A DNA stretch of 53,676 nucleotides from Candidatus Magasanikbacteria bacterium RIFCSPLOWO2_12_FULL_43_12 (GCA_001783065.1 MFQN01000007.1:1-53676), one strand, 5' to 3'. Shown: positions 16,147 to 49,847, counted from the first letter of the stretch. Program-made: numbers and translations. The notes: generated by a model not told the origin, from the sequence alone.

Positions 16147-16172
16147 AATTTTACTACTGTTAGCAGATCTCT

Positions 16173-17605: not shown

Positions 17606-18679
17606 CTAGAAACAAGACACTGTCGACGTGGCAAACGGCTGATTGTTTGGCTGGTTAGCCGCCAAAACCACATAAACCCCGATGCCGTTTTCCTGAACAG
17701 CATACATACAGAACTTGCCGACTGAAATGGTTGAGGAAGTGGACAAACCACCTGCTCCGACTGACAGTTGTCCGTAAGGCGTTGAAGACACAACGCCAAC
17801 TTTATTCGTGGTAGCATTTACGACCAAACTATCAGTGTCTATCGTAACTGTCCCAAAAACAGTCAAAGTGCCGGTTGCTGAAACATTTCCCGAAGAATCA
17901 ACACTGAAGTAGCCGGAATCATAGGTGTTTAAAACCTTATTAAGGTTGAAAGCGGTCCTGGAAAGTGTTGAGGTTGAATCAATGCCATTGGAGACTGTCA
18001 ATGTTCCCAATCTTCCTGTTACCGTAATATCATCATTCACCGCGTTGCCGAGAGTGACTGCGCCGTCTAGAGTGGTGGCGCCAACAGCCTTTAATGTGCC
18101 GGAAGCATTGACATTTCCCGAAGAATCAACACTGAAGTAGCCGGAATCATAGGTGTTAAGTACCTGATTAACATTAAGAGCAGTCCTGGAAAGTGTTGAG
18201 GTTGAATCAATGCCATTGGAGATTGTCAATGTTCCCAATCTTCCTGTTACCGTAATGTTATCATTCACCGCGTTGCCGAGTGTGACTGCGCCGTCTAGAG
18301 TGGTGGCGCCAACAGCCTTTAATGTGCCGGAAGCATTGACATTTCCCGAAGAATCAACACTGAAGTAACCGGAGTCATAAGTGTTAAGAACCTTATTAAG
18401 GTTGAAAGCAGTCCTGGAAAGTGTTGAGGTTGAATCAATGCCATTGGAGATTGTTAATGCTCCCAGTCTTCCACTAACAGTTATGTCATCATTCACCGCG
18501 TTGCCGAGTGTGACTGCGCCGTCTAAAGTGGTGGCGCCGGTAACGCCTAATGTTCCCCCGACTGATGTATTGTTGCCAACGCTGGTAGCGCCAAATACTA
18601 AAGCTGGCGCTAACACCAACCCTGCCACCACCAACAAGAGGCAAAACATTCTTCTTCTGTTGTACATAAAGTTGTACAT
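17606..18679 (-). CDS. secreted tandem-repeat protein (3 x 76 aa)
   Basis: 357 aa. It has a signal peptide (MFCLLLVVAGLVLAPALVFG) and three near-identical units: GATTLDGAVTLGNAVNDDITV(S/T)GRLG(A/T)LT(I/V)SNGIDSTSTLSRTA(F/L)N(L/V)N(K/Q)VLNTYDSGYFSVDSSGNV. Confidence 0.7.
   Translation of the reverse strand: MYNFMYNRRRMFCLLLVVAGLVLAPALVFGATSVGNNTSVGGTLGVTGATTLDGAVTLGNAVNDDITVSGRLGALTISNGIDSTSTLSRTAFNLNKVLNTYDSGYFSVDSSGNVNASGTLKAVGATTLDGAVTLGNAVNDNITVTGRLGTLTISNGIDSTSTLSRTALNVNQVLNTYDSGYFSVDSSGNVNASGTLKAVGATTLDGAVTLGNAVNDDITVTGRLGTLTVSNGIDSTSTLSRTAFNLNKVLNTYDSGYFSVDSSGNVSATGTLTVFGTVTIDTDSLVVNATTNKVGVVSSTPYGQLSVGAGGLSTSSTISVGKFCMYAVQENGIGVYVVLAANQPNNQPFATSTVSCF
17870..18560. repeat. tandem DNA repeat, about 228 bp x 3 (approximate bounds), inside CDS 17606-18679
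   Basis: The string GACATTTCCCGAAGAATCAACACTGAAGTA(G/A)CCGGA recurs near 18111 and 18339, and a close variant (AACATTTCCCGAAGAATCAACACTGAAGTAGCCGGA) near 17883. The spacing is 228 bp. Confidence 0.8.
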
Positions 18680-22931: not shown

Positions 22932-23004
22932 AAATTAAAATGTAAAAATTTAAAATGTGATGATAACAATATAACACGATTATAATTTTTTAACAATAGC
23001 AAAA

Positions 23005-23023
23005 CTCCGCCAAGAAGGCGGAG
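23005..23023 (-). terminator. rho-independent terminator downstream of the giant gene
   Basis: Stem CTCCGCC / GGCGGAG with loop AAGAA. On the minus strand it is followed by TTTTGCTATTGTT. Confidence 0.65.
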
Positions 23024-23054
23024 TGTTTGCTTTCGCTTTACTAAATCAAAATGA

Positions 23055-26000: not shown

Positions 26001-26867
26001 AACTTTGGTAAATGACAAACGAGAAGCGCTGGCTAACGCGTAACCGCCTGTTGGGGTATCGGCAGCCAAGCTTACGGTCAAATTACCACCAACTGTAGTT
26101 GTGGTTTCTGTAGTTGTGGTTTCTGTAGTGGTGGTAGTAGTGGTTTCGGTTGCCTCCATTTGACTGGCATCTTCAGTTACGCTTGCGGCAGTAACTGTAG
26201 TATCAGCCACTTCCAAAGCATCAACCACGGTTGCGGCTGGAGATTGGACATACTTTGCCACAAAAGCCGGCAAAGAGCCGTCAACCTCGTGCAAAGCGCC
26301 GCCTTCAACTTTGTAAGTAACAGTACCCTTTTTCACCAACATGCCGTCATGTGGTTTGGTGCCATCCACTTCTCCGCTTACTTCATCATAGGTGTCATAA
26401 TAGACATCCGGAAGATCGCGAACTGATTTTGCCCAGTTATCGCCATATAATGCCTTAGCCGCGGCCTCGCTGGCGATTTTCTTTATATCGCCGTTAGGCA
26501 ACACAGCAAAGACATTCGGGGAGATAACAGTTTTTATCAACACTGAACCAGGTAAATAGCTCGCGCCACCGCCTGATGGATAAGCGCCTACGCAGGTTTG
26601 ATCAATCGTTACAACTCCGGAAAAGTCTTCATACCAAGTATGATAAACTTCGGAGTTAAAGAAATACACCCTTTCCATGTCCGCGTTGACATAATAAACG
26701 GCGGAGTTGTCGGGAACCTTAAACAGGTCGCCGGTTTCCAATTCCGGACACTCAACTGCGACAGCGACGAGCGGTACCAAAGCGGACACGCCCACGCTCC
26801 ACAGGATTGTCATGACAACAACAGACACGGTAAAGACTTTTTTTCCTAATTTTAATAAGTCTGTCAT
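23055..26867 (-). CDS. giant secreted/surface protein (1270 aa), beta-rich and Thr/Ser/Ala/Gly/Val-rich
   Basis: N-terminal signal/anchor (VFTVSVVVMTILWSVGVSALVPLVAVA). An N-terminal triple xVYY module is shared with 16173-17573, followed by a poly-Thr linker (TTTTTTTETTTTETTTT) and about 1000 aa of Ig-like repeat-style sequence. Confidence 0.7.
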   Translation of the reverse strand: MTDLLKLGKKVFTVSVVVMTILWSVGVSALVPLVAVAVECPELETGDLFKVPDNSAVYYVNADMERVYFFNSEVYHTWYEDFSGVVTIDQTCVGAYPSGGGASYLPGSVLIKTVISPNVFAVLPNGDIKKIASEAAAKALYGDNWAKSVRDLPDVYYDTYDEVSGEVDGTKPHDGMLVKKGTVTYKVEGGALHEVDGSLPAFVAKYVQSPAATVVDALEVADTTVTAASVTEDASQMEATETTTTTTTETTTTETTTTVGGNLTVSLAADTPTGGYALASASRLSFTKVVFKAGDADVTIDSFKVKRGSSPATDADFATLNVVTPEGGLLNDSGKTLNSDHEVTFTENISVPANTSKTYTLVGNMAAAATMVGGNVPSLAVTSVTLVGTGTVSGLPVEGNKLTTNDSLTLASATFAEGSAVGTVTKQVGTNNVLVASIKLTNGTTGSDAKKIQMEKLTFYSSGTVADADITSFSLKYNNVTLASAPMVGKYVNFDFAACGDDCILDKGYDRTFDVYANLTAGSGRTINLDLQYATHAAVKDVTNGVYITPTDSATGMTNTVTVSQGKLNVTKVNNVPAGNIPKNATKVELASWNFNVVGEPIDIRTLAFKIIPTGTGKAEMLDALILYDKDGKALIGGVDGVGASAATAGFATTTDTFTLQAGDNVLTLKGTVDNNPAAADTFQIGIDMTNTTNFIARGVNSSLDITLGTGTPYATPNSLVTANTKTVQTSALTVTTLSSPAARTYAPGTNDILFAKVSFDASASTEDIKISQVKATDVISSGIPLDLQNISLWVDKDGDSNNGAGTPVALTEVVAGSTTTAADETFTWNLSGDDQFIIKAGKKLTLEIHANIAGGATVGSHTISIATADWVTGTGQTTKNQVTEVISSATASAVTVGTAGGQVEVALSSSNPSAKLFAGGTTVTLAVFNFLATTTEDVEMDFMYLTQLSTLAASTSYKDYDEIWFEDSAGVEISGTRMSPTSTKPYIDFTENALVVKTTDSSGKNLYLKAKVAAIGSSYNGTSGHYLGYKVNASGDIVAKGDLSGTGSTEYISPSNAPTGNTHYVYKTYPVFAKESVSSNKLTNGTKDLFKFKVTAVNGDIALAGFTFDISTTTATLAASSLYLYDVTESTEVQINDNGSGPTQSGAYNFTGSGAVWNTTSTDWSTNYSSGEITVALGTPRTFILRGNITGSTTGASMSVSMAGDAAFLNNGATLMLAQAGAHKQSSNNDFIWSDKNASGHSSTTADWTNGYLVSGLSSTTSTVETVAY

Positions 26868-27126
26868 AATGAATTAATTCACTTATTCCGAGGCGTTCCG
26901 ACTAAGTCGGAATCAACGAGATAAGCAATTTGGTTAAATGTATCAAACGACTCTTGCGAGCCTCGACCGATTTGTTTGATACTGCCCTTTTCCCGATTTT
27001 CATCGGGACCAACTGTATGGCTAAATAATTTTCCCCTCGCGGGGGATTAACAACTTTAATTTTTTCAAGTCATTAACCCCTCGCGAGGATTGCCGCATCA
27101 GTTTTTTAAAGGACGTTATTAATAAT

Positions 27127-28371
27127 TTATTTCTTAACCTCTGTTATAATCGCCGTTGTTGTGGAAACAGGCTGACTATTCAAAACACCACTGCTTACCG
27201 CGTCCACGGCTTTTTTAACCTCAACCACTGTTCTCTCCGCTTCTTCCGCGGCTTGAGTCGCATCTTTTACTTTGCCCATGGCTTCCAATAAATGATTGCC
27301 GTCAACCAAAACCTTGGCCTCTTCTAATGTTTTCTGACTTTCCTGCCCTTGCGCGATTGCTTGTCTGTTAACATCGCCTAATACATTTTTAATTGTAGAT
27401 GTCGGCAATATGATTGGTGTTGTGGAATTGACAAAAACTTGAATAGAAGAATTGGAAATCAAAATCGTGGAAGAAACGGTAACCACCACGTCCGAAGGCA
27501 AGTTGTTAGAAGTAATAGGAGCCGCTTCCAACACTTTTACCGCGTCTTCCGCTCTGCTTTTCATATCACCGGTATCCTGCATTGCCACGTCAATTTGTGT
27601 TTGAACCATTGTTTTAGCGTCTTCATCGGAAATAATATTTTTGCCATCGCCTTCATTTTTTTGCACTATTGTTTTTACAATATCCAGACTACTGTCTTTG
27701 ACTGCCTGTTTAGTTCCAGCCACATCCACTTCTGATCCGCCTTGCTCCGCGGCAACAGTCAATGTTTGATTGATATCTTTCGCGGTCTCTTGCATGCCTT
27801 TTACCACTTCAACAATTTTTTCCGGTTCTTCTTCCACAACCGCTTTAATCGCTTCGTTTGCGGTTTGAATAGATTTTTCTAATTTTACCATTGCCTCGGC
27901 CGCTCTCTGCGGAGCGTCAACCGCTTTGTTTTCAACCACTTTCTTAACTTCTTTAGCCCGACGGGTAGCGAACTCCAGATGCATCTGCGCTTGCTGACCT
28001 TTAGCGCCAGCGACCGATGTTACCAATTCTTGAGTCTTCTCTGCCGCCAATTTTACTCCATAACAAATCTCGCCAGGCAGACAATTCTGCGTCGCGCCCA
28101 CGCTGGCAATCCAACCGCTGGTCGCTACCGCGCCAACTAAAACAAAAACCGCCATTGGACGAACCACGGTGTAGGCCAAACGACCCGGCACAAAAATATT
28201 AATCGCCTGCCAAACATAATCAAACCTAAAACGCGGCTTGTCTTTAGAAACCGTGTTATTGATTTGTGACATTAGCTTCGCGCGATTTTGCGCGACCCAA
28301 GATTGATCTGGATTTAACCGATCATTTTGTTTTTTGGCTGTTTTTAATTGTGTCTTGAGAAGATCAGACAT
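27127..28371 (-). CDS. membrane-anchored coiled-coil protein, putative anti-sigma / sigma-associated (DUF5667-like)
   Basis: The track starts at 28413 inside repeat element B. The likely start is MSDLLKTQLK (ATG at 28371). There is one TM segment (VRPMAVFVLVGAVATSGWIASV), then a long Ala/Lys/Glu/Val-rich helical region. It lies directly downstream of the ECF sigma gene. Confidence 0.5.
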   Translation of the reverse strand: MSDLLKTQLKTAKKQNDRLNPDQSWVAQNRAKLMSQINNTVSKDKPRFRFDYVWQAINIFVPGRLAYTVVRPMAVFVLVGAVATSGWIASVGATQNCLPGEICYGVKLAAEKTQELVTSVAGAKGQQAQMHLEFATRRAKEVKKVVENKAVDAPQRAAEAMVKLEKSIQTANEAIKAVVEEEPEKIVEVVKGMQETAKDINQTLTVAAEQGGSEVDVAGTKQAVKDSSLDIVKTIVQKNEGDGKNIISDEDAKTMVQTQIDVAMQDTGDMKSRAEDAVKVLEAAPITSNNLPSDVVVTVSSTILISNSSIQVFVNSTTPIILPTSTIKNVLGDVNRQAIAQGQESQKTLEEAKVLVDGNHLLEAMGKVKDATQAAEEAERTVVEVKKAVDAVSSGVLNSQPVSTTTAIITEVKK

Positions 28372-28384
28372 AACCGCAGTTTCT

Positions 28385-28475
28385 GTCATTGCGAGCCTTC
28401 GCAGATGAAGCAATCCACACTCGTTAACCGTTGGCGACTGGATTGCTTCGTCGTCTGCAGACTCCTCGCAATGAC
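28385..28475. repeat. nested-palindrome element, copy B
   Basis: GTCATTGCGAG...GAAGCAATCC...GGATTGCTTCG...CTCGCAATGAC, lying between the sigma and anti-sigma-like genes. Confidence 0.85.
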
Positions 28476-28476
28476 A

Positions 28477-29037
28477 CTATTTTTTTTCTAAAAGTTCTTT
28501 TAATTTTTTCAGCGCGCGATGCAAAGTTACTCTGACGCTTATTTGACTTTTCCCTAAAATCCGCGCCACCTCCCCGGCTGACAATTCTTCTATATAATGT
28601 AATAGCACCGCCTCTTGATACTCTAACTTCATCTTCTTTAACACTTTCATTATTTCATCAATTTCTCCATCAACTTCCAACCGCTGTTCCTCGCCAGCGC
28701 CCGCCGCCGCCACTATTTCAATAACCGCTTCCAACGGCAATTCTGACGATCGCCGCGCTTTCTCGCGATAAAAGTCCACCACAAGATTTCTCGCTATCCG
28801 ATAAATAAAGCTTGCGAAACTTCTGATCTCTTGTTCACTATTCTCCACCAGATAATTCCAAGCCTTCAAAAACACCTCGCTGGTCAAATCCTCTGCTTCC
28901 TCGCGACTGCTGATTTTAAAGAAAACAAAACGATAAATCTTTTTGACGTATAAATCGTAAAGCAGACCATATGCTTCCGGATCTCTTTTAATTCTTACCT
29001 TATATAACAGCAACTTCTCGTTTATTAGGTCTTTCAT
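28477..29037 (-). CDS. RNA polymerase sigma-70 family factor, ECF-type
   Basis: The track extends to 29214. The plausible start is MKDLINEKLLLYK (ATG at 29037). Region 2 reads YDLYVKKIYRFVFFKISSREEAEDLTSEVFLKAW, and region 4 reads EYQEAVLLHYIEELSAGEVARILGKSQISVRVTLHRALKKLK. Confidence 0.8.
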   Translation of the reverse strand: MKDLINEKLLLYKVRIKRDPEAYGLLYDLYVKKIYRFVFFKISSREEAEDLTSEVFLKAWNYLVENSEQEIRSFASFIYRIARNLVVDFYREKARRSSELPLEAVIEIVAAAGAGEEQRLEVDGEIDEIMKVLKKMKLEYQEAVLLHYIEELSAGEVARILGKSQISVRVTLHRALKKLKELLEKK

Positions 29038-29185
29038 AATATAAGACGCAGATAAAACAAAAATGTTACACCCCTTTTTCACTGCATCACTTGACCACAG
29101 CATCACTACATCACTTTTTTTTCCACAGCCAGATATATAACAAAAACTATCCCCCCGCGGGGAAGCCCTATACTGTGTGAAAATA

Positions 29186-29194
29186 AGTATAGCA
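29186..29194 (-). promoter_or_regulatory. extended -10 element (TGCTATACT on the minus strand) upstream of the sigma gene
   Basis: The plus strand reads AGTATAGCA, the same 9-mer as at 18747-18755. Confidence 0.45.
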
Positions 29195-29412
29195 TAAACG
29201 AGGAAAAAAGGCAAAAAAAAGATACTAATATACGGATAGAGTACTAATTATACTAATGAATACAAATAAGTGTTGGAGTTAATTAAATGTGGTTTACAAG
29301 TACTTAGTATACATTAGTATCATTGGTACCATTCGCATATTAGTATTTGTATACAACACTCTATACTTTCATAAAATATGGTTAGTTTTTTAGCTAATCT
29401 AAAACATAAAAA

Positions 29413-29434
29413 TAGTATACACAAGTCTATACTA
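29413..29434. promoter_or_regulatory. palindromic operator-like site 1 (TAGTATA-N8-TATACTA)
   Basis: Perfect 7-bp inverted half-sites. It is a near-identical copy of the site at 29508-29528. Confidence 0.55.
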
Positions 29435-29479
29435 TTTTTTTAATCTGACTTAACCATCACCTCACGAACTCTTTTATAC

Positions 29480-29508
29480 TTGACAAGTTTCCACCTTTTG
29501 ACTACAAT
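29480..29508 (+). promoter_or_regulatory. sigma-70-type promoter of the HTH gene
   Basis: TTGACA (29480-29485), a 17-nt spacer, then TACAAT (29503-29508), 24 nt upstream of the ATG at 29532. Confidence 0.7.
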
Positions 29509-29528
29509 AGTATACACTAGTCTATACT
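29508..29528. promoter_or_regulatory. palindromic operator-like site 2 (TAGTATA-N8-TATACT), abutting the -10
   Basis: TAGTATACACTAGTCTATACT begins at the last base of the -10 hexamer and ends 3 nt before the ATG. Confidence 0.55.
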
Positions 29529-29531
29529 CTT

Positions 29532-29864
29532 ATGGCAGAACAACAATCAAAAAACAGTCAAAAACAGGTAGTTAGGGTGTCTATTTCAGAGGCCGCGAAG
29601 CTGTTTGGCTTAAATCAGCAGACAATCCGCCGCGCTATTGCCAACCAAGAGCTAACCTATATTGTTGTTGGCGGACGCTATAAAATCAACTTTGAAAGTT
29701 TAGTGCGTTGGTCCCAGGCAAAGACCGCGCTGAAAAATAAACTTGAAAAGCAGGGAATTGGCCAATATGTGGATAAGTGGAAAATTAAAAACACCTTATA
29801 CTCCCCCAGCCCGAAAGTGATCCCGAAAACAGATACCGAGACCAATATAAATAATTCCGTCTGA
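29532..29864 (+). CDS. helix-turn-helix DNA-binding protein (excisionase/MerR-superfamily HTH)
   Basis: 110 aa. SISEAAKLFGLNQQTIRRAIANQEL...GGRYKINFESLVRW is the typical HTH_17/excisionase-family pattern. Confidence 0.7.
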   Translation: MAEQQSKNSQKQVVRVSISEAAKLFGLNQQTIRRAIANQELTYIVVGGRYKINFESLVRWSQAKTALKNKLEKQGIGQYVDKWKIKNTLYSPSPKVIPKTDTETNINNSV

Positions 29865-29887
29865 TAAGGACGGATTTGTTTTCTTTG
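29856..29887 (+). terminator. rho-independent terminator of the HTH gene
   Basis: Stem TCCGTC / GACGGA encloses the TGA stop and is followed by TTTGTTTTCTTTG. Confidence 0.6.
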
Positions 29888-29892
29888 CGTCT

Positions 29893-29996
29893 GTCATTGC
29901 GAGAAGGCCAACATTCATTGGCCGACGAAGCAATCTACGGCAATCGCTTGTGGTTATGATGGATTGCTTCGTCGTCTGCGGACTCCTCGCAATGAC
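29893..29996. repeat. nested-palindrome element, copy C
   Basis: GTCATTGCGAG...CGACGAAGCAATC...GGATTGCTTCGTCG...CTCGCAATGAC. It is intergenic. Confidence 0.85.
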
Positions 29997-30061
29997 TTCT
30001 GCCTCACTTTCATCTGCCAACTTGTCCATCAACTCTTAACAGGATATAATACTAACTGCCT

Positions 30062-31915
30062 ATGCGCTTCGTCCAAGAACATTTTACCACCCGCCACTTA
30101 TTCCACAAACCCCACAAATGGTTTCTGGCTTTTTTGCTGTCACCGATTCATTTTCTTGAACTGCATTATAAAAACAAATACCACCTTAATTTTCAACACG
30201 CCAAAAAACTTTTTGTGTTTGACATGGTTTTGCTGTTTACCGCTAGCCTGCTTTTTGCCGCAACAATTTTTTGGTTCACCTACAACCCGACTATCACGAA
30301 CCTGATTTTCTTGTCCATAGACACATCTTCTTCTGACACAAAAATTATCAGTGGCGATTTCATCACCTACACTATCGCCTATCAAAACAAAAGCAATATT
30401 AAAATCGTTTCTCCGTCATTAACAATCCGTCTACCCATAGGTTTCGTTATTGAGGCTATCGCGCCGAAAGAATCTTTCAACTCCGCGGAACGTAAATTCA
30501 CTCTTGCTGACTTGCATCCTCAACAACACGGCCAAGCGACTGTCAGTGGCTGGTTTTACGGCACGCCGGATGTTGAAAACAAAATTACCGCTATTTTAGA
30601 ATACACGCAGGAGGGCAAAGCCAGCAAAGAAGTCAAATCTACTCCCTTATTTCAATTCCATCGCGGATCGGTTTTAAAAATTGGAATTAACGCCCCGGAA
30701 AAATTTATCGCCACCGGCTCTGTTCCAATTAAAATAACCCTGACGAACACCGGCAAAAGAACGCTTAACGCGATTAACCTGCCGCTAACACTGTCCGCTG
30801 GTCTTTCTTTTGCAGATCCAAAAGTAGATAAAGGCGAGATCAAAAACAACCAATGGCAAATTACTGAACTCGGAATAAGTGAAAAAACTAATCTTTCGGC
30901 GATACTAAAGACTGTTTTACCGGAACAAATTAAAACCGCTGTATTAAAACTCACTCCATCATTAGAAATAAACGAAACAAAAATCGCCCAAAATACTGTT
31001 GAAAAAAACTTTCCGGTTTTACATCCGCAAGTTTCTATCCAATCATACTGGACAGATCAACTAACAAAAATCCAATCTGGGCAAACACTTGAGCTCAACT
31101 TATCCCTCGTCAACAATGGCGATATTGATTTAAATAATTTAGAAATAACTCTACCGATCCAAAATGAAATTATTAACACTGACAAGCTGATAAATTTAAA
31201 CACTGGCAGTTATAAAAATAAAATTTTGACTATCCATTCCAAACATGACGCCGGACTATTAACTTTGGCGAAAAACCAAACAAAAAATTTGAAGATAAAA
31301 ATTCCGATTCTTGAATCGCCGAATGTTGGCGCTGATTTGGTTCTAAAAATTAAGCCTGAATTAAAAGCTGACATCAGCGACTTGACCGGTGTCGTTTACA
31401 AAACCGAAACTTCCGCTCCGGAAATCAAAATCGGCACGCGATTGGATTTAACCGGCGAGGTTCGTTATTACACTGTTGACGGCGACCAGCTTGGCCGCGG
31501 CCCGCTCCCGCCTCAAGTCGGTAAAGAAACAAAATATTGGACGTTGTTAAAAATTACCAACACCACGAGTAAAGTAACTGACTTAATATTAACCGGCGAG
31601 CTTCCTGATCATGTCGCTTGGACCGGCAAAAACAGTGTGAGCCGTGGTAGTAGTGTTATATTTAACGAAAAAACAAAAATGATTTCGTGGTCACTCAACT
31701 CCCTATCACCACAACAAACTGTTGGCATCTATTTTGAATTAGCCCTTACACCAACCGCCGAACAAACCGGAACCGCGCCGATTATTTTACAAAATGTTCA
31801 GCTCCGAGCGACGGATGATTTTATTAAAGAAAAAATCACTGACACTCTGCCGGATTTTGATGTGTCTTTGGTGAAAGATAAGATTGGGAGGGAGAAGGGG
31901 GTGGAAGTAGAGTGA
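30062..31915 (+). CDS. membrane-anchored protein with DUF11-like beta-sandwich repeats
   Basis: 617 aa. It has a TM segment (MVLLFTASLLFAATIFWF) and repeated modules of the type GD.ITYTI.Y.N.S...V....L...LP.G. The true start may lie downstream. Confidence 0.55.
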   Translation: MRFVQEHFTTRHLFHKPHKWFLAFLLSPIHFLELHYKNKYHLNFQHAKKLFVFDMVLLFTASLLFAATIFWFTYNPTITNLIFLSIDTSSSDTKIISGDFITYTIAYQNKSNIKIVSPSLTIRLPIGFVIEAIAPKESFNSAERKFTLADLHPQQHGQATVSGWFYGTPDVENKITAILEYTQEGKASKEVKSTPLFQFHRGSVLKIGINAPEKFIATGSVPIKITLTNTGKRTLNAINLPLTLSAGLSFADPKVDKGEIKNNQWQITELGISEKTNLSAILKTVLPEQIKTAVLKLTPSLEINETKIAQNTVEKNFPVLHPQVSIQSYWTDQLTKIQSGQTLELNLSLVNNGDIDLNNLEITLPIQNEIINTDKLINLNTGSYKNKILTIHSKHDAGLLTLAKNQTKNLKIKIPILESPNVGADLVLKIKPELKADISDLTGVVYKTETSAPEIKIGTRLDLTGEVRYYTVDGDQLGRGPLPPQVGKETKYWTLLKITNTTSKVTDLILTGELPDHVAWTGKNSVSRGSSVIFNEKTKMISWSLNSLSPQQTVGIYFELALTPTAEQTGTAPIILQNVQLRATDDFIKEKITDTLPDFDVSLVKDKIGREKGVEVE

Positions 31916-32021
31916 AGAGATAGGAGATAAGAGATAAGAGATAAAAATATTTAACATCAGAGGATATTAGTATCCCTTAGTATTATTAGTAAATTAGTAT
32001 ATTGGTATGTTTAACTACCCC

Positions 32022-32050
32022 TTGACAAGAGGGCTTTTTTGTGGTATAAT
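32022..32050 (+). promoter_or_regulatory. strong sigma-70-type promoter upstream of the Cys-rich gene
   Basis: TTGACA (32022-32027), a 17-nt spacer, then TGgTATAAT (extended -10; TATAAT at 32045-32050). It leaves a leader of roughly 165 nt before the ATG at 32222. Confidence 0.7.
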
Positions 32051-32221
32051 TATATGTCAATTTATGCCTAAATCAGGTATATTGGCAAGAGGAAGGAAAG
32101 CCCTGCACCGACCCGAAGGGTCTGGTGCTGGGGGACGCGCTCTTTACAATAGAATTAGATTTGCCATGTTGGCGAGTCTTGAGGTTTTCGTAATTCAATA
32201 TCAAGAAAGGCAAGGTGTGCG

Positions 32222-34957
32222 ATGGAGACCACGAAGAAGGCCGCAGTGGCCACGGTTCTGGTTCTGTTCTCGGTTCTGTGCGGGTGCTCAAACGTGACCA
32301 TGCAGTGCGAGACGGACTCGGACTGCGACGACGACAATCTGTGCACCAAAGATTCTTGCGGTGCGGGCATCTGCCACTTCGCGAAAATCAAGAAGTGCGA
32401 CAGCCAGCAGATGTGCGATGATGACGCTTGTGGCAACTCCGACGACGGCGAGTCCAACGAGGACTCGTCCCCGCCACCTGACGAACAGCCAGACGGTGAT
32501 GTATCACCAGACACTGACAGCCCACCGACCGAGCCCGGTCCGGACACTACCGACACATCCGACGCAACGTTGGACAGTTCTGACAGCACTGACGCTGGAG
32601 ACGAAGCTGATGACACTGACATCAGTCAGTCGGACCAGCCAGACACGCCTGTCGGAGACGACGGTGCGACTGGCGGCGATGACGGAACTGGTACGGACAC
32701 GAACGACAGCGAAGTTGCTGGAGACGTAAGTGTGGACGACGATGTCGGCCAGGACGCGGAAACGGTGGAAGAGACAACTCCTCTGCCTTGTATCTGCATC
32801 TCTGACGACAACCTCTGCACGGACGATTACTGCAACGACGCAGACGAATGCGTCCACGAGCCGGTTGTCGGTTGTGGTGGCGTTGATGTTGAAACGCCGA
32901 ATGCCGACGGTAGCGATACTGTTGACAACGGAGTTGACGCGTCAACCACCAACCCTGAACCAAGTCCGGACACAGCAGAAACCGACGCAACGTCTGACGG
33001 TTCTGACAGCGCGGACGGAGACAGTGGAACAATCGTTCCGCCGCCACAAGATACTGTCGTCGGAACCGATGCACCGACTACCACTCCAGACACCAGTCCG
33101 GATACCGCGGACACTGTTGACAGTGAGACTGGAGACGGTGGAACGGATGCAATCAACAATACGGACGTGACCAACGGAAATGCAGAAGTTGAAAATACTG
33201 ACGACGATGTCGGCCAGGATGCGGAAACGGTGGAAGAGACAACTCCTCTACCTTGTATCTGCATCTCTGACGACAACCTCTGTACTGACGACTTCTGCAA
33301 CGACGCAGACGAATGCGTCCATGAACCGATTGTTGACTGTTGCAACGAAGACACCGGGTGCGACGACGGAGACATTTGCAACGGAGTGGAAGCCTGCGAC
33401 GCGAACAAGTGCGTCGGTGGTGAACCACTCGTTTGCGACGACAAGAACGTCTGCACCGACGACTCATGCCACCCAACCGAGGAGTGTATCTTCACTCCCA
33501 ACTCCAACCTCTGCGACGATGGCAACGCCTGTACGATGGGCGATGTCTGTTCACAGGGCAAATGTGCATACACGGAAACGTGTGAATGCACAATGGACAC
33601 CGAGTGCGACGATGGAAGCAAGTGCACCACTGAATCGTGCGTTAGCAACAACTGCAAGTACGAAAAAGTGGAATGCAACGACTCCGACGCCTGCACCACC
33701 GACACCTGCGAACCGACAACCGGCTGTGTGTTCGCGCAGATCGTCGTTGACGACTCCAACGCCTGCACGGACGACAGTTGCGACATGGAGACAGGCGTGA
33801 TACACGTTCAAATTGCGTGCGAAGACAACGATGTCTGCACAAAAAACCTCTGTGTTGCAACAGAAGGGTGCATCTATCTGCCCATCGCCGACTGCTGCCA
33901 CGATGACGCCGAGTGCGACGACGGAGACGTTTGCAACGGAGTTGAGACCTGCGGCGACAACAAATGCGTCGCGGGGCAAAAACTCATCTGTAACGACTTC
34001 AGTGTCTGCACTACGGACTCGTGCGACCCGAGCAAAGGTTGTGTGTTTGAACCAATCAGCGGATGTTGCAAGACAGATGTTGATTGCAACGACTTCAACC
34101 AGTGTACCGGCGATGCCTGTGTCAAATCCACCGGCGAGTGCGTGCACTTCGGCATCCCAGGCGACTGCAACGATGGTGACGAGTGCACCACGAACGACGC
34201 GTGCAAGAACAGCGAGTGCGTCGGCGGTCCGGCTCTGGATTGCAACGACAGCAGTGTCTGTACCGCGGATTCGTGCGACACGGCTACCGGCTGTCAGCAT
34301 TCGGCTGTCCCAGATGGTGAGCCGTGTACTGACAATACTGTTTGCAATGGCGCAGAAATGTGCCAGAGCGGACAGTGCAAGTCCGGTGTGGCGCTCAACT
34401 GCGACGATGTGGACATCTGTACCGCAGACTCGTGCGACACGGCGGACGGCTGCAAGCATTCAGCCGAACCGGATAACGACAGCGATGGTCCATGCGACCT
34501 CGCTGACAACTGTCAATCGGTTGCGAACGCTGACCAGTCAGACATGGACAAAGACAGCGTCGGCGATGTCTGCGACCCGGACAAAGACGGTGACGGCGTG
34601 GACAACGCCGCTGACAACTGTCCTTCAACCCCAAACCCCGACCAGTCCGATATGGACAAAGACAGCGTCGGCGACGCATGCGACACTGTCAACACCTGCA
34701 ACCTTTCAACCGCTGGACTTCCAGCGTGGTACTACCAAATATCCCCGATGTGCGTCAACGGTTGCTTCGTGGGTGACGAGATGGTATGCATCAAATGCAT
34801 CTCTTCCCACAACAACTGCACGTGGAACAGCGACGGGGACTGGGTAGGACCAATATGCCAGGGCGACTGCAATGATGGTTACTCCGGCATAACAAACGAG
34901 TGTTGGCCGGGAGGGCAAATACCCCCGGTCTGCGCGGATCCATGGACCCCTCAATAA
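32222..34957 (+). CDS. GC-rich secreted/lipoprotein-like cysteine-rich repeat protein (Dictyostelium-CTDC-like repeats plus thrombospondin type-3 repeats)
   Basis: 911 aa. The N-terminus METTKKAAVATVLVLFSVLCGCSN is a signal peptide with a possible lipobox. An acidic D/T/S/P-rich region is followed by more than 20 repeats of the C.D.N.CT.D.C....GC type. Two TSP3-like units read DNCQSVANADQSDMDKDSVGDVCD and DNCPSTPNPDQSDMDKDSVGDACD. An AGGTG RBS sits 4 nt upstream of the ATG. Confidence 0.75.
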   Translation: METTKKAAVATVLVLFSVLCGCSNVTMQCETDSDCDDDNLCTKDSCGAGICHFAKIKKCDSQQMCDDDACGNSDDGESNEDSSPPPDEQPDGDVSPDTDSPPTEPGPDTTDTSDATLDSSDSTDAGDEADDTDISQSDQPDTPVGDDGATGGDDGTGTDTNDSEVAGDVSVDDDVGQDAETVEETTPLPCICISDDNLCTDDYCNDADECVHEPVVGCGGVDVETPNADGSDTVDNGVDASTTNPEPSPDTAETDATSDGSDSADGDSGTIVPPPQDTVVGTDAPTTTPDTSPDTADTVDSETGDGGTDAINNTDVTNGNAEVENTDDDVGQDAETVEETTPLPCICISDDNLCTDDFCNDADECVHEPIVDCCNEDTGCDDGDICNGVEACDANKCVGGEPLVCDDKNVCTDDSCHPTEECIFTPNSNLCDDGNACTMGDVCSQGKCAYTETCECTMDTECDDGSKCTTESCVSNNCKYEKVECNDSDACTTDTCEPTTGCVFAQIVVDDSNACTDDSCDMETGVIHVQIACEDNDVCTKNLCVATEGCIYLPIADCCHDDAECDDGDVCNGVETCGDNKCVAGQKLICNDFSVCTTDSCDPSKGCVFEPISGCCKTDVDCNDFNQCTGDACVKSTGECVHFGIPGDCNDGDECTTNDACKNSECVGGPALDCNDSSVCTADSCDTATGCQHSAVPDGEPCTDNTVCNGAEMCQSGQCKSGVALNCDDVDICTADSCDTADGCKHSAEPDNDSDGPCDLADNCQSVANADQSDMDKDSVGDVCDPDKDGDGVDNAADNCPSTPNPDQSDMDKDSVGDACDTVNTCNLSTAGLPAWYYQISPMCVNGCFVGDEMVCIKCISSHNNCTWNSDGDWVGPICQGDCNDGYSGITNECWPGGQIPPVCADPWTPQ
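32735..32863 (+). repeat. internal direct repeat, copy 1 (129 bp)
   Basis: Near-identical to 33200-33328, 465 bp downstream. It encodes DDDVGQDAETVEETTPLPCICISDDNLCTDDYCNDADECVHEP. Confidence 0.85.
33200..33328 (+). repeat. internal direct repeat, copy 2 (129 bp)
   Basis: See copy 1. There are a few mismatches (GGACGCG/GGATGCG, CTGCCT/CTACCT, TAC/TTC, CAC/CAT, GAG/GAA). Confidence 0.85.
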
Positions 34958-35041
34958 ACCTACCGCTCTTTCATAGCCGAAGCAATCCTTCCCGCTTCGG
35001 CTCCAATCCCTTTTGCTTGTTTTGAAAGTAAGCAGAAGAGA

Positions 35042-35072
35042 ACTCCGCTCCGATGTTACATCGGAGCGGAGT
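35042..35072 (+). terminator. rho-independent terminator of the Cys-rich gene
   Basis: 14-bp perfect stem ACTCCGCTCCGATG / CATCGGAGCGGAGT with loop TTA, followed by TTTTATTTA. Confidence 0.8.
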
Positions 35073-35083
35073 TTTATTTATAC

Positions 35084-35112
35084 TTGACTTATTGATCAAA
35101 TTATTTTATAAT
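35084..35112 (+). promoter_or_regulatory. sigma-70-type promoter for tRNA-Glu (and probably tsaD-prs)
   Basis: TTGACT (35084-35089), a 17-nt spacer, then TATAAT (35107-35112). The tRNA starts at 35129. Confidence 0.7.
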
Positions 35113-35246: not shown

Positions 35247-36350
35247 ATGCTCATTCTCGGCATTGAATCTTCATGCGATGATACTTCAGTCGCGCTGGTT
35301 GACGCTTCTACGCGCGGCTTTAAAATACTGGCGGAAAAAACCGCCAGCCAAATTGAAATACACAAAAAATACGGCGGGGTGGTGCCGGAAATAGCGGGGA
35401 GAATGCATGCGGAAAAAATCTTACCCCTGATTGAAGAAGCGGCGGCTAAACAACCAAAACCAGATATAATTGCCGTAACATCCGGACCGGGATTGATTAC
35501 CGGGTTGATGGTTGGAGTTGAGGCGGCGAAAACATTGTCTTATTTGTGGAATGTGCCGGTGGTTGGAGTGAATCATATTGAAGGACATATCCATTCCGTA
35601 GAAATTTTCAATTTTCAATTTTCAATTTTCAAAATTAAATATCCTGCGATAGCGTTGATTGCGAGCGGAGGGCATACGGAGTTGATTTTAATTAAAAAAC
35701 GCGGACAATACAAAAAAATCGGCGCGACGCTGGATGACGCGGCCGGGGAGTGTTTTGACAAAGTCGCAAAATTGTTAGGTTTTGATTATCCCGGCGGACC
35801 AAAAATTTCTAAATTCGCGGAAACAGGAAACCCTGATGCTATAAAATTTCCACGACCGATGCTGGATAAAAACAATTTTGATTTTAGTTTCGCTGGACTA
35901 AAAACCTCCGCGCTGTATTGGCTTCGCGACCATACCGTCATTGCGAGGAGGAGCCGAAGCGACGACGAAGCAATCCAATCATCAAATGACACTGGATCGC
36001 CGCGTCGCTACGCTCCTCGCGATGACTTATCCGTCAACGACTTCTGCGCTTCTTTTGAACAAGCCATCATTGATGTCCTCGTCGGTAAAACTCTGAAAGC
36101 TGTTGAAAAATACAAACCCAAAACCATAATATTAGGAGGTGGGGTGGCGGCAAACAAAAAATTGAGGGAGACACTCTCAAGCGCAATCAAACAACGTTCT
36201 CAAATATCCAATCTCAAATATCCAATCTCCAACTACTGTATGGACAACGCCGCCATGATCGCTGTCGCCGGATATTATCACGCAATAAAAAAAGGCTTCA
36301 CGCCGTGGCAGAAATTAAAAGCTGATCCGGAATGGGAGATAGCCCACTAA
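35247..36350 (+). CDS. tsaD: tRNA N6-adenosine threonylcarbamoyltransferase
   Basis: 367 aa. It has MLILGIESSCDDTSVALV, GVNHIEGHI, ASGGHTELI, GGPKISKFA and CMDNAAMIA. Three repeat-derived in-frame insertions are present (see findings). Confidence 0.9.
   Translation: MLILGIESSCDDTSVALVDASTRGFKILAEKTASQIEIHKKYGGVVPEIAGRMHAEKILPLIEEAAAKQPKPDIIAVTSGPGLITGLMVGVEAAKTLSYLWNVPVVGVNHIEGHIHSVEIFNFQFSIFKIKYPAIALIASGGHTELILIKKRGQYKKIGATLDDAAGECFDKVAKLLGFDYPGGPKISKFAETGNPDAIKFPRPMLDKNNFDFSFAGLKTSALYWLRDHTVIARRSRSDDEAIQSSNDTGSPRRYAPRDDLSVNDFCASFEQAIIDVLVGKTLKAVEKYKPKTIILGGGVAANKKLRETLSSAIKQRSQISNLKYPISNYCMDNAAMIAVAGYYHAIKKGFTPWQKLKADPEWEIAH
35603..35636. repeat. AATTTTC x4 heptamer array inside tsaD
   Basis: AATTTTCAATTTTCAATTTTCAATTTTCAAAATT encodes (E)IFNFQFSIFKI between the HxxxH-type metal motif and the SGGHT motif. 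Confidence 0.85.
35937..36026. repeat. nested-palindrome element, copy D (90 bp, in frame inside tsaD; right inner arm degraded)
   Basis: GTCATTGCGAGGAGGAGCCGAAGCGACGACGAAGCAATCC...CTCGCGATGAC is translated as VIARRSRSDDEAIQSSNDTGSPRRYAPRDD. Confidence 0.8.
36199..36230. repeat. CTCAAATATCCAAT x2 (plus a partial unit) array inside tsaD
   Basis: It encodes SQISNLKYPISN just before the conserved CMDNAAMIA. Confidence 0.75.
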
Positions 36351-37412: not shown

Positions 37413-38414
37413 TTAGTTCGCTAAAATTTTCTGCTTCAGCGCGAAACAATTACCGTGCTTCACTAATCCTAAATAAGAACGCAAAGTTCCTTCAGTCGGG
37501 TGAATTTTTATTCTCGCAAACATTCTATTTTTTGTTTTTGTACGCAGGACACGGTGGTCATTAAACAATACCCAACCAAGAAAATCCATACCAGAAGCAA
37601 TGGTTTTAATAAATAGTTTGTTTGGATGGAGTACGAGCGAAAGCTCGTCTCGCAAAAAATCTCTAATTTTTGGTATTAATTCTTCCAACCATTGTTTGTT
37701 GTGAGACAAAAACACAAAATCATCCGCATAGCGAATGTAATATCTTGCTTTTAATTTGTGTTTGATAAATTGATCAAGTTTGTTTAAGTAAATATTGGCA
37801 AAGAGTTGAGAGGTTAAATTGCCAAGTGGGAGGCCGTGTCTGTCATTGCGAGGAGTGAGGAACGAGCGACGAAGCAATCCAGTGTCGATTGGCGACTGGA
37901 TTGCTTCGCTCCCGTTGGTCGCTCGCAATGACGGATTGTTGCCTTTGTTTGAATAACTTTCAATCACCTCCTCCAATAATAAAATAATATTTCTGTCCGG
38001 AATATATTGTCTAAGAATATTTTTGAGAATATTATGGTCAATACTATCAAAAAACTTTTTAATATCGCATTTTAGTATCCAACAAGTACGAGTATGATTT
38101 TGACTAACTGCAAAAGCAAAAGAACGAAAATGATTTATTGCTCTATGCGTGCCTTTGTCTATACGGCAAGAATAAGAATCACCAATAAATGTTTTGTCAA
38201 AAAATGGGTAAAGTATTCTATAAACAGCATGGTGTAAAAGACGATCTCTGACCGAGGCCTTGTGAATGTGCCGACGTTTGGGGTCGTTGACGAAAAAACT
38301 TTCGTAACCACCGTGACTATAAGTAAAATTTGCCAAATCTTGATAAAGTGCTACAATGTTATCCATCAAGTCACGGGAGAATAATTGGACATCAGTTTTC
38401 TTTTTCTTGCCCAC
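37413..38414 (-). CDS. DGR-type reverse transcriptase (GTG start as annotated; N-terminus probably truncated; carries a 91-bp repeat insertion in frame)
   Basis: 333 aa. It has DRLLHHAVYRIL (motif 1/2 region), LKCDIKKFFDSIDH (motif 3), GLPLGNLTSQLFANIYLN (the DGR-specific [LIV]GxxxSQ motif 4) and YIRYADDFVF (YxDD). Confidence 0.85.
   Translation of the reverse strand: MGKKKKTDVQLFSRDLMDNIVALYQDLANFTYSHGGYESFFVNDPKRRHIHKASVRDRLLHHAVYRILYPFFDKTFIGDSYSCRIDKGTHRAINHFRSFAFAVSQNHTRTCWILKCDIKKFFDSIDHNILKNILRQYIPDRNIILLLEEVIESYSNKGNNPSLRATNGSEAIQSPIDTGLLRRSFLTPRNDRHGLPLGNLTSQLFANIYLNKLDQFIKHKLKARYYIRYADDFVFLSHNKQWLEELIPKIRDFLRDELSLVLHPNKLFIKTIASGMDFLGWVLFNDHRVLRTKTKNRMFARIKIHPTEGTLRSYLGLVKHGNCFALKQKILAN
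37842..37932. repeat. nested-palindrome element, copy E (in frame inside the RT gene)
   Basis: GTCATTGCGAGGAGTGAGGAACGAGCGACGAAGCAATCCAG...CTGGATTGCTTCGCT...GCTCGCAATGAC. On the minus strand it is translated as SLRATNGSEAIQSPIDTGLLRRSFLTPRND, immediately N-terminal to GLPLGNLTSQ. Confidence 0.85.
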
Positions 38415-38480
38415 AATAAAATCCTCTCAGGCCAATAACAAATTTTCTAAACCAAATTTTTCTGGTGGAGAATGAAAAAA

Positions 38481-38601
38481 CTGGCGGACGACGGCGAACG
38501 AGCAGTGCCCGTTCCAGACGCACTCGGCGGAGTCCAAGTAGAGCTTGCGGACGCCACCATTGCCGTTGACGTAAGGCACGAGACCGCGCCACACAGAACC
38601 G
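38481..38601 (-). repeat. DGR repeat in the template-repeat (TR) position, 66 bp upstream of the RT ORF
   Basis: 103/121 identical to 38965-39085 by hand alignment without gaps. It lies in no credible gene; only a 68-aa GTG-started ORF covers it. Confidence 0.65.
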
Positions 38602-38715
38602 TCACAAAATATACAAAACAGCGCCAATGCCACTGCCCCTAGAATACTCTCGGGGCTGAACCGAATTCGGAGACGTTATCTCCATACTGCTTTGTACCAA
38701 GTATTTTCATTTTTA

Positions 38716-38734
38716 ATCCTGATTAAATCAGGAT
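38716..38734 (-). other. 8-bp hairpin in the VR-TR spacer
   Basis: ATCCTGAT-TAA-ATCAGGAT. Confidence 0.5.
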
Positions 38735-38832
38735 AAAATTCAACCGCCCGAAGCCGTGTTCACTTCTTCAGCAAACAAAACCGCGGACTGTAGCGTTGAC
38801 TATCTACACTCTATTTTATCATAAAAAGAGGA

Positions 38833-38855
38833 ACCGTGCACTTCTGGTGCACGGT
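38833..38855 (-). terminator. hairpin / likely rho-independent terminator downstream of the DGR target gene
   Basis: 9-bp stem ACCGTGCAC / GTGCACGGT with loop TTCTG. On the minus strand it is followed by TTCCTCTTTTTATGAT. Confidence 0.6.
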
Positions 38856-38922
38856 ATCGGGCCGCTCCGTCGTGTGACGGAGGGATGGGAGAGAAAAGAG
38901 CGAAATCAGTGGGATAGGCCGC

Positions 38923-38947
38923 CGGACACCCGAGAACCGAGTGTCCG
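38923..38947 (-). promoter_or_regulatory. GC-rich hairpin 15-39 nt downstream of the target gene's stop codon (VR 3' end)
   Basis: CGGACAC-N11-GTGTCCG. Its position is analogous to the hairpin/cruciform that assists mutagenic homing in the Bordetella phage DGR. Confidence 0.45.
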
Positions 38948-38961
38948 AGCGACCAAGAAAC

Positions 38962-39606
38962 CTACTTGCGGACGACGGCGAACAAGCAGTGCTCGTCCCA
39001 GTCGTTCTCGGCGGAGAGCAGGTCGAGCTCGCGGCGGCCACCATCGCCGAGGACGTAAGGCACGAGAGCGCGCCACACAGAACCGAGGGCGAACACCAGA
39101 CAGTCCTTGTGCTTGTCAGGATTCTTGAGCCACCACCACAGCAACTCAACCAGAGTCGCCGAGCGATAGCCCTGCGAGTCAATGTAATCCTTGACTTCCT
39201 GCGTGGGCATCGTAGACCGGCCGAGCTCACGGAGCTTCTGCTTGATGGAGAGTGTCTCCACATGCTTCTGATCCAGATCGCCGCCATCGTACGGAAAATT
39301 CTTGCTGTTGATGTCCGAATTGCGGAACGAAACAAATCCGCACGCCGAAATCATCATTTCCAAGAACTTGTCCCACCAGTTGGCAGGAGCAGGGGCCGAC
39401 GTCGTCGGCTCCTGTCCAGCGATCAGCGCGGCCATCTTCTTGACCGTTTTGCGTCCATCCGGCTTGACCAGCTGGTGAAGACGCTCGTTGATAGCTTCCT
39501 CGTTGTCGCCGAGCAAATCCTTGAGCTCCTCCAAGAGCGCGCCGATCACAGACACAAGCCACCCGAGAACCTTCACGATCATGAACACGTTCTTCGCCTT
39601 TGGCAT
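38962..39606 (-). CDS. DGR target (variable) protein, membrane-anchored/secreted, with a C-terminal ligand-binding module carrying the VR
   Basis: The track ORF extends to 39642. The likely start is MPKAKNVFMIV (ATG at 39606) with GGAGGT 5 nt upstream. There is a hydrophobic N-terminus, GYRSATLVELLWWW is DUF1566/CLec-like, and the last 40 codons are the VR. Confidence 0.75.
   Translation of the reverse strand: MPKAKNVFMIVKVLGWLVSVIGALLEELKDLLGDNEEAINERLHQLVKPDGRKTVKKMAALIAGQEPTTSAPAPANWWDKFLEMMISACGFVSFRNSDINSKNFPYDGGDLDQKHVETLSIKQKLRELGRSTMPTQEVKDYIDSQGYRSATLVELLWWWLKNPDKHKDCLVFALGSVWRALVPYVLGDGGRRELDLLSAENDWDEHCLFAVVRK
38965..39085 (-). repeat. DGR variable repeat (VR), the last 40 sense codons of the target gene
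   Basis: It pairs with 38481-38601. The 18 mismatches all fall at codon positions 1 or 2. Confidence 0.7.
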
Positions 39607-39841
39607 GACGCACCTCCAACTTTTGGCTTGCCACTCACACAAAACACCATGTTCCGCGCCCCAGGCTTGCCAACCAAGGCCGAGATAACTCCCAGCCTTC
39701 TTTCTAACTTATTGCTAAAATAAGCCAAAAAGAAAGCTGGAAAAAATTATTTTTTTATAAGGAACTAACAAAGTATTGTACTACATTTTTAGAATCTTGT
39801 CAAGATACCTCCTTGTGCGCAATATTATAAAAGAACACCAA

Positions 39842-44455: not shown

Positions 44456-44481
44456 AGACAGTTTAACTATCCACAAGCTAT

Positions 44482-49799: not shown

Positions 49800-49847
49800 A
49801 TTAGTATCCATTAGTATCATTAGTACTCTATTAGTATATTAGTAATA

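Follow-up and report, generated by a model that had tools for sequence, protein, structure and literature searches.

A GC-rich gene for a cysteine-rich surface lipoprotein in Candidatus Magasanikbacteria is probably a long-term resident of its AT-rich genome

INTRODUCTION

Is a sharply bounded GC-rich gene next to a tRNA gene, in an otherwise AT-rich genome of the candidate phyla radiation (CPR), a piece of foreign DNA or a resident of long standing? The question is raised by a contig of 53,676 nucleotides (nt) from Candidatus Magasanikbacteria bacterium RIFCSPLOWO2_12_FULL_43_12 (CPR/Patescibacteria; GCA_001783065.1, MFQN01000007.1:1-53676), the whole of which is called the window below. Positions 32222..34957 of its plus strand encode a predicted lipoprotein of 911 amino acids (aa), composed of 10.8% Cys and 17.7% Asp and devoid of Arg, with an array of CTDC repeats, thrombospondin type-3 (TSP3) repeats, and a C-terminal domain. 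A first-pass annotation made by a model from the sequence alone took this gene to be foreign. Our analysis indicates instead that it is probably a vertically inherited, fast-evolving gene for a cell-surface lipoprotein, and that the GC island is not a scar of transfer. CTDC proteins and cysteine-rich surface proteins of CPR bacteria are already known; of interest for further work are its persistently anomalous composition and its rare tip domain.

RESULTS

A sharp compositional island on a genuine contig

The coding sequence (CDS) has a G+C content (GC) of 0.568, against 0.432 for host genes, an atypical composition of the kind used to recognize islands. In 1-kb windows, GC is 0.55-0.57 across 32001-35000 and 0.36-0.51 in the rest of the window. 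At third codon positions (GC3) the CDS reaches 0.654, compared with 0.27-0.57 for the remaining open reading frames (ORFs) listed in the window; the one exception to that range, ORF 38941..39723, is probably spurious. Hand counts given in the first-pass annotation (36 G+C in 60 nt at 32281-32340 and 17 in 60 at 31921-31980) proved exact on recount. Its claim of more than ten spurious overlapping ORFs was also borne out, as 14 ORFs of at least 80 aa lie in other frames across the CDS, which is to be expected where GC is high and stop codons are few.

Such a boundary might arise by misassembly, with the GC-rich gene of another organism joined into the CPR contig at repeats. De Bruijn graph branching and raised depth are found at 31911-32047 and at the tRNA gene, and the assembly graph breaks only at repeats, namely a TTAGTAT block near 31977-32050, an internal duplication, and the tRNA. 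Against this, 13 contigs of one population (>99.7% identical), taken from independent assemblies of several samples and made with several assemblers, carry the identical protein with the same neighbors on both sides. Assemblies GCA_001782965.1 and GCA_001783015.1 contain the gene, as do about 14 metagenomes. Logan contigs from four DNA runs cover the whole stretch at a word depth of 12-14 inside the gene, 15.5 upstream, and ~10 downstream, i.e., about equal inside and outside. The same arrangement recurs in three related loci from other studies (L007, L018, and L090, described below), and the promoter and leader are conserved along with the gene. A chimera is, for practical purposes, excluded, and its probability is negligible.

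Some variation was seen within the population. A C>T change at 32620, in a third codon position, is carried by all four runs and by five of the six other contigs, and in one strain the final codons (34948-34954) differ by three synonymous substitutions. One low-depth contig of run X2 joins 32333 to 34160, which represents either a repeat-to-repeat deletion or an artefact. An apparent 92-nt loss of the 3′ hairpins in L004 turned out to be a scaffold gap of Ns.

GC-rich orthologues at the same locus in diverged relatives

We then considered recent acquisition, in which the gene would have come from a GC-rich donor such as Myxococcota and would stand, unameliorated, under host signals. Its GC and GC3, far above those of the host, fit this view; so do the top-scoring CTDC proteins, which come from Binatia, Myxococcales, and other GC-rich groups, and the tRNA-Glu gene directly downstream. 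The history of the locus points the other way. The closest full-length relative, P0005 from Candidatus Magasanikbacteria (locus L007), is 42% identical over 92% of the query. The gene order at L007 is a large surface protein, a DUF5667 anti-sigma factor, an extracytoplasmic function (ECF) sigma factor, an HTH_17 protein, a 618-aa DUF11 protein, the CTDC gene, tRNA-Glu, tsaD, prs, and dnaE. In the window, the CTDC gene is likewise preceded, at 22251-31915, by a conserved surface module that encodes a protein of 1257-1270 aa without a family, an anti-sigma factor (DUF5667 in both the window and L007), an ECF sigma factor, an HTH_17 protein, and a DUF11 membrane protein of 616-622 aa. In L018 (isolate SI048_bin34) and L090 (GCA_016193335.1), the CTDC lipoprotein gene directly follows the orthologous 616-622-aa gene. 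The six-gene module, CTDC gene included, is found in the window, L007, and L090, and from the anti-sigma gene onward in L018. Two more relatives (L008 and L009) share the same end-to-end architecture.

These orthologues are all GC-rich, in genomes of 35-46% GC. Their GC3 is 0.707 in L007 (neighbor genes, 0.35-0.53, with one 86-aa ORF at 0.60), 0.663 in L008 (about 0.38-0.54), 0.676 in L009 (neighbor genes too few for comparison), 0.681 in L018 (0.23-0.35), and 0.837 in L090 (0.32-0.49). The assignment of the gene as acquired on the basis of its composition therefore fails, since orthologues just as rich in GC are found at this locus in L007, L018, and L090 and occur also in L008 and L009. Homologues of this composition run throughout the lineage, which is the observation that the first-pass annotation itself had named as speaking against acquisition. 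The distribution is not patchy either: in none of the related genomes sampled was the gene seen to be absent.

The relatives are separated widely enough for this argument to carry weight. Neighboring proteins are 65-90% identical between the window and L007 and 41-54% identical between the window and L018; the CTDC protein, at 42% and 32%, respectively, follows the same order. For the DUF11 neighbor, the window and L018 proteins are 45% identical and the fraction of identical four-fold sites is 0.24, which amounts to synonymous saturation. Thus, a composition left by a transfer that predated the split would have decayed. TSP3 proteins from 52 unrelated genomes, several of them AT-rich, served as controls: they mostly track host GC3, the largest other deviations being +0.19 and -0.20, while the L018 orthologue deviates by +0.33. 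The control loci came from a contig scan with a C-terminal alignment, which was captured by the TSP3 motif; L018 was the one orthologue in that scan.

Traces of mobility are lacking as well. No integrase or transposase was found among the genes near the CTDC gene, and the 3′ end of tRNA-Glu is not duplicated elsewhere, i.e., no att-like repeat was detected. No tRNA gene lies at the locus in L018 or L090, and tRNA-linked integration was ruled out on these grounds. The tip domain is confined to a small group of CPR bacteria; outside that group the best local alignments reach at most ~42% identity, about the level among unrelated CTDC arrays, and the four-fold sites of the window gene equal those of the host. 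A recently acquired island is thus very improbable.

At an Azambacteria locus (L091), four CTDC genes with GC3 of 0.70-0.85 stand beside genes with GC3 of ~0.3. At 19220-20551 on the minus strand of L018 lies a second GC-rich outlier (GC 0.60, GC3 0.80, in a 35%-GC genome) for a Cys/Asp-rich, Arg-free lipoprotein of 443 aa, and the phenomenon is therefore not confined to one gene per genome.

Conserved expression signals flanking a divergent CDS

The gene is preceded by a sigma-70-type promoter at 32022..32050 (+), TTGACA-17 nt-TATAAT with an upstream TG (extended -10), which scores 12 of 12 and agrees with the near-consensus promoter proposed earlier. An identical promoter sequence stands 5′ of the L007 orthologue. 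It is followed by a structured leader of ~165 nt (32057..32221, +; minimum free energy, -59.2 kcal/mol; z = -3.2), which includes a hairpin at 32157-32179 (+) with pair-preserving changes relative to the L007 leader, and a Shine-Dalgarno-like AAGGTG at 32212-32217 (+). An Rfam search of the leader for a riboswitch returned no family at E ≤ 1, and the conserved hairpin is all that was seen.

Downstream of the CDS, a first hairpin (AGCCGAAGC-loop-GCTTCGGCT, 34975..35002, +), followed by a T-rich tract, is conserved in L007. It precedes an intrinsic terminator at 35039..35085 (+) with a 17-pair stem, the apex CCGATGTTACATCGG, and a T-run. As had been noted, two other terminators in the window share this core: CCGATGT(T)ACATCGG occurs at 16124, 35050, and 53075, where shuffled sequences are expected to yield none. 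The terminator-like hairpins concerned (16112-16152 and 53060-53100) differ at the bases of their stems, and the apex is also found once in the related locus L008.

The promoter, most of the leader, and the first 3′ hairpin show almost no differences between window and L007, whereas the CDS that they flank is only 42% identical. This argues for a fast-evolving gene that has long been resident, and the description of its expression signals as host-type is confirmed.

Two variable elements lie in this region. A GC-rich hairpin of ~42 nt (GCACCGACCC GAA GGGTCTGGTGC; 32096..32140, +) is inserted in the leader, as indicated by an alignment gap in L007. Loose ends and a foreign contig piece were found at 32100-32133; these 34 nt occur in other metagenome contexts, and the insertion may thus be a small mobile hairpin. 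Just 5′ of the promoter is an AT-rich block of TTAGTAT repeats (31964..32010), where Logan word depth rises to 44-94× and the assembly graph branches. TTAGTAT/ATTAGTA blocks are present in three intergenic regions (29214-29340, 31964-32010, and 49798-49853) and give rise to graph branching and a depth spike in the assemblies. They could be a binding array or merely a lineage-typical AT-rich repeat.

Sources of the GC excess

From the amino acids of the CDS and the codon choice of the host, a GC of 0.497 is expected; 0.569 is observed, and host genes have 0.432. About half of the excess is therefore due to amino acid composition and about half to codon choice. The first share reflects a protein rich in Asp, Cys, Thr, Gly, and Pro and poor in Lys, Ile, Leu, and Phe. 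The second stems mainly from GAC, AAC, and TGC and resides, in the window, in two-fold codons. GAC accounts for 0.78 of Asp codons in the CDS (0.32 in other genes), AAC for 0.86 of Asn (0.31), TGC for 0.74 of Cys (0.53), TTC for 0.90 of Phe (0.23), and ATC for 0.70 of Ile (0.25). Over all two-fold Y codons, the C-fraction is 0.79 in the CDS and 0.30 in other genes, whereas GC at four-fold sites is 0.56 and 0.55, respectively. In L018, where host four-fold GC is 0.28, all codon classes of the orthologue are shifted (four-fold GC, 0.66; C-fraction at two-fold Y codons, 0.70), which indicates that the gene keeps a roughly constant composition whatever its host.

As this codon choice is kept across lineages, the composition must be maintained, be it by selection at synonymous sites, GC-biased conversion among repeats, or both. 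Candidates for the force that holds it are codon selection on the abundant Asp, Asn, and Cys residues, GC-biased conversion among the repeats, and exchange within a GC-rich gene pool. Translational accuracy, by which C-ending codons would be favored only at conserved Cys and Asp, was ruled out, since GAC is as strongly preferred over the other Asp codon in the nonconserved, disordered spacers (27:4 and 16:8). Tentatively, and with slightly less than even confidence, we propose more broadly that such genes are permanent "false islands" in AT-rich CPR genomes. Their GC-rich state would be actively maintained by synonymous selection on Asp, Asn, and Cys and/or GC-biased conversion, and their segments, the tip included, would be shuffled between lineages.

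Architecture and probable role of the protein

The best reading of the protein is a lipid-anchored stalk of disulfide-stapled beta-hairpins that carries a putative calcium-binding segment and ends in a rare tip domain restricted to the lineage. Its N-terminus, METTKKAAVATVLVLFSVLCGC, conforms to the PROSITE pattern for lipoproteins, side rules included (PS00013/PS51257; VLVLFSVLCGC, with K5 and K6 in the first seven residues). The predicted type-II signal peptide with its lipobox (METTKKAAVATVLVLFSVLCG|C) is encoded by 32222..32287 (+), and Cys22 is the predicted lipidated residue. The possible lipobox suggested earlier is thereby supported, and the same pattern was found in six of eight relatives tested (seven of nine sequences with the window protein). 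No lgt or lspA was present among the scanned ORFs of the window.

Where a single acidic low-complexity spacer had been described, there are two, rich in Asp, Thr, Pro, and Ser, at aa 71-188 and 219-345 (32432..33256, +). Both end in the unit TTPLPCICISDDNLCTDD(Y/F)CNDADECVHEP, and the underlying 169-nt copies (32707-32875 and 33172-33340) are 85% identical.

The CTDC array comprises ~15 units at aa 346-755 (33257..34486, +), with additional units at aa 35-56 and 195-216. The repeat type had been recognized by eye, and the Pfam profile Dicty_CTDC (PF00526) matches it at 98.6 bits (cut-off, 27) in 11 stretches. The estimate of more than 20 repeats was too high: a hidden Markov model (HMM) built from the units of this protein detects 17 complete units plus a partial one. 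Nor is the repeat "eukaryote-style," a label that reflects an accident of Pfam naming, as it occurs in thousands of bacterial proteins. In an alignment of 52 CTDC sequences, the Cys columns are nearly invariant. When aa 369-581 were modelled with AlphaFold2 from an alignment of 52 homologues (mean predicted local distance difference test [pLDDT], 82.9), each unit took the form of one beta-hairpin, so that the array would form an elongated chain. Its best match in the PDB is the heavy subunit of the Entamoeba histolytica Gal/GalNAc lectin (9gjb/9gjf; Foldseek E = 3e-4, probability 0.99).

The TSP3 repeats recognized by the first-pass annotation lie at aa 756-822 (34487..34687, +). TSP_3 (PF02412) matches at 63.5 bits (cut-off, 25) in three stretches when aa 747-824 are searched alone and is missed in a full-length scan. 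COMP and thrombospondin chains in the PDB (3fby, 2rhp, 1yo8, and 1ux6) match aa 760-821, 3fby with E = 1e-37. Two tandem 108-nt copies here (34465-34572 and 34573-34680) are 72% identical, and DxDxDxxGDxCD motifs are present. TSP3 repeats of thrombospondins and COMP bind calcium.

The protein ends in a domain of 89 aa, with 12 Cys in the window copy, that presumably forms the distal tip (34688..34954, +). No Pfam family matches it. A word-index search with the C-terminal 91 aa found nothing, which reflects a limit of that method: an exhaustive, profile-free search with the same 91 aa, run against 1.84 billion representatives, retrieved only six clusters. Four of these are true relatives (a fragment of the window protein, P0012, P0123, and P0125), which share eight conserved Cys and the motifs GDC, CW, and WT with P0002, P0005, and the L018 protein. 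Any role for the tip is a guess.

Over the whole protein, acidic residues make up 23%, and Arg is absent. The lack of Arg was considered as a CPR-specific trait and ruled out, as CTDC proteins are poor in Arg generally (median 0.9%, 115 hits).

These features suggest how the protein might act. Exported by the Sec pathway and lipidated at Cys22, it would be anchored on the outside of the cell membrane, with the acidic spacers carrying it across the envelope; glycosylation of the spacers is conceivable because PMT-type glycosyltransferases and many glycan genes are encoded nearby. The CTDC rod, presumably stapled by disulfides, would then hold the putative calcium-binding TSP3 segment and the tip away from the cell, where the variable tip could contact a partner cell, a matrix, or a mineral surface. 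The protein is thus probably an adhesin or another surface-contact protein.

The same architecture could instead serve a nonadhesive role, as a calcium-binding component of the envelope or surface layer or as a protective, protease-resistant coat. Consistent with this are the acidic, Arg-free composition and the calcium binding known for TSP3 repeats in thrombospondins and COMP, as are the neighboring genes, which make envelope glycans and other surface proteins, and the single conserved locus, reminiscent of a housekeeping envelope gene. Fast evolution (42% identity to L007, as against 65-90% for the neighbors) and a variable or exchangeable tip are more typical of interaction surfaces than of scaffolds, and the best fold match is the stalk of an adhesin. 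We therefore regard a nonadhesive role as somewhat unlikely, and a part in surface contact remains the favored reading.

Mosaic similarity along the protein

Different segments of the protein have different nearest relatives. For the spacers, the nearest is the syntenic P0005 (51%, 275 bits); for aa 561-755 of the CTDC array, it is P0123 (50%, 233 bits); and for the tip, P0002/P0012 (56-57%, 120 bits; 38 bits for P0005). This sequence pattern suggests segment exchange between lineages or very uneven rates. On this basis, the locus might be old and its content rebuilt time and again by recombination or segment exchange within a GC-rich pool of CTDC genes among CPR bacteria, whose composition it would mirror. 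The CTDC gene of L090, at the same locus with a different C-terminus and a GC3 of 0.84, and the four GC-rich CTDC genes of the Azambacteria locus agree with such a pool; the internal duplications testify to active repeat turnover, and strain variation has been reported in proteins of this kind (PMC4736985). However, all sampled hosts are AT-rich, and a pool confined to them should drift to low GC unless some force maintained it. In addition, identity over the whole protein tracks host divergence, unequal rates among segments could mimic a mosaic, and repeat proteins align ambiguously. We consider a locus rebuilt in this way unlikely, and vertical descent at a fixed locus probable.

Gene surroundings and other features of the window

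The gene is surrounded by envelope and glycan biosynthesis genes, including PMT-type glycosyltransferases. Positions 268-16028, together with 10 kb beyond the left end of the window (L092-L094), form a very large region for glycan and envelope biosynthesis. It encodes GT1, GT2, and GT4 transferases, at least three PMT-type transferases, a dTDP-sugar epimerase and dehydratases, Wzy_C, an asparagine-synthase-like enzyme, a formyltransferase, and a polysaccharide deacetylase. At 17853-18556, three tandem 228-nt copies (85-90% identical) lie within ORF 17606..18679 (-), beside a putative fn3-bearing surface protein.

Downstream of the CTDC gene by 2.5 kb is a retroelement cassette (37413-39606, -) with an RVT_1 reverse transcriptase gene (37413..38414), a pair of 122-nt repeats (38480-38601 and 38964-39085; 85% identical), and a 214-aa ORF (38962..39606) that holds the second repeat copy in its 3′ end. 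The cassette looks like a diversity-generating retroelement, and a bAvd gene is present in the corresponding region of L007. Only 6 of 18 mismatches fall at template adenines (6 of 14 A changed), and the retroelement may therefore be decayed. The CTDC gene was ruled out as its target, no copy of the cassette repeat being found within 32222-34957.

A palindromic family of ~90 nt (GTCATTGCGAG ... CGAAGCAATCC ... GGATTGCTTCG ... CTCGCAATGAC) has members at 18911-19006, 28385-28475, 29893-29996, 35937-36009, 37842-37940, and 44343-44463. Two of them lie within ORFs (tsaD and the reverse transcriptase), whose reading frames continue through them. The 3′ hairpin of the CTDC gene has one arm motif in common with the family (34978), and strain L002 is without 83 nt (28375-28457) at one such element. 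Simple repeats of the AATTTTCAATTTTCAA type are found at 256-302, 35603-35649, and 51014-51147, and one copy in the tsaD ORF encodes FNFQFSIFKIKY.

DISCUSSION

Synteny, near-identical flanking signals, and equally GC-rich orthologues in genomes diverged to synonymous saturation indicate that the CTDC lipoprotein gene is probably inherited vertically. Several observations weigh against this reading or against parts of it. The mosaic of segment similarities implies that descent was not purely vertical, and in L090 the gene at the same locus is without the tip domain. The GAC bias in nonconserved spacers argues against a selection for accuracy that is restricted to critical residues. The modelled CTDC array resembles the Entamoeba lectin with a TM-score of only 0.25 and a sequence identity of ~20%, a structural likeness alone, and an AlphaFold2 model of the TSP3 segment and tip built from four sequences was unusable (pLDDT 36.9). 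An extension of the contig aimed at ribosomal-protein genes, for comparison of codon usage, yielded only more glycan genes, and no metatranscriptome run holds the gene.

The locus corrects a tempting misreading: a sharp compositional island beside a tRNA gene, which would suggest horizontal transfer, belongs here to a conserved, lineage-typical surface gene. Island finders and binning filters that rely on composition would mark or remove the very genes likeliest to mediate contact between CPR bacteria and their partners. The rare tip domain is a defined candidate for attachment studies, and the family offers a conserved six-gene surface module. The gene also provides a clean case of synonymous composition held far from genomic equilibrium in a very small genome.

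Like horizontally acquired genomic islands, the locus is sharply bounded in composition and lies next to a tRNA gene. Unlike them, it is without mobility genes or att repeats, occupies the same place in diverged relatives, and has conserved signals.

Large cysteine-rich extracellular proteins for which attachment was proposed, and strain variation noted, were described in CPR Peregrinibacteria by Anantharaman et al. in 2016 (PMC4736985). An attachment role is plausible for the window protein and would agree with that proposal. Both come from CPR bacteria in the same kind of groundwater samples. The Peregrinibacteria belong to another phylum with a 58% GC genome, so that no compositional contrast was reported, and their proteins have ~7% Cys, average 1655 aa, and were not described as having a TSP3 and tip architecture (PMC4736985).

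The thrombospondin and COMP type-3 repeats (PF02412; PDB 3fby, 1yo8, and 1ux6) have the same motif, DNC(P/Q)xxxNxDQxDxDxDxxGDxCD. In contrast to thrombospondins, the window protein has only two or three such repeats, is without a C-terminal lectin-like globe, and is found in a bacterial context. The CTDC array as modelled resembles the cysteine-rich stalk of the Entamoeba lectin, a surface adhesin, in being an elongated series of repeats, presumably rich in disulfides; the carbohydrate-recognition region of the lectin has no shown counterpart in the window protein.

Also among the closest known systems are bacterial Dicty_CTDC (PF00526) or "Myxococcus cysteine-rich repeat" proteins, which occur in Myxococcota, Binatia, Acidobacteriota, and other groups. 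They share the signature C-D-D-x-N-x-C-T-x-D-x-C-x(3-4)-G-C, a Cys content of ~10-13%, high Asp, and very low Arg (the median of 0.9% given above), and many have an N-terminal signal or lipobox. The window protein differs in being shorter (911 aa, against ~1000-1600), in having two acidic spacers with the lineage-specific TTPLPCIC unit, and in ending in a tip known from a handful of CPR proteins, and its gene is a GC-rich outlier in an AT-rich genome.

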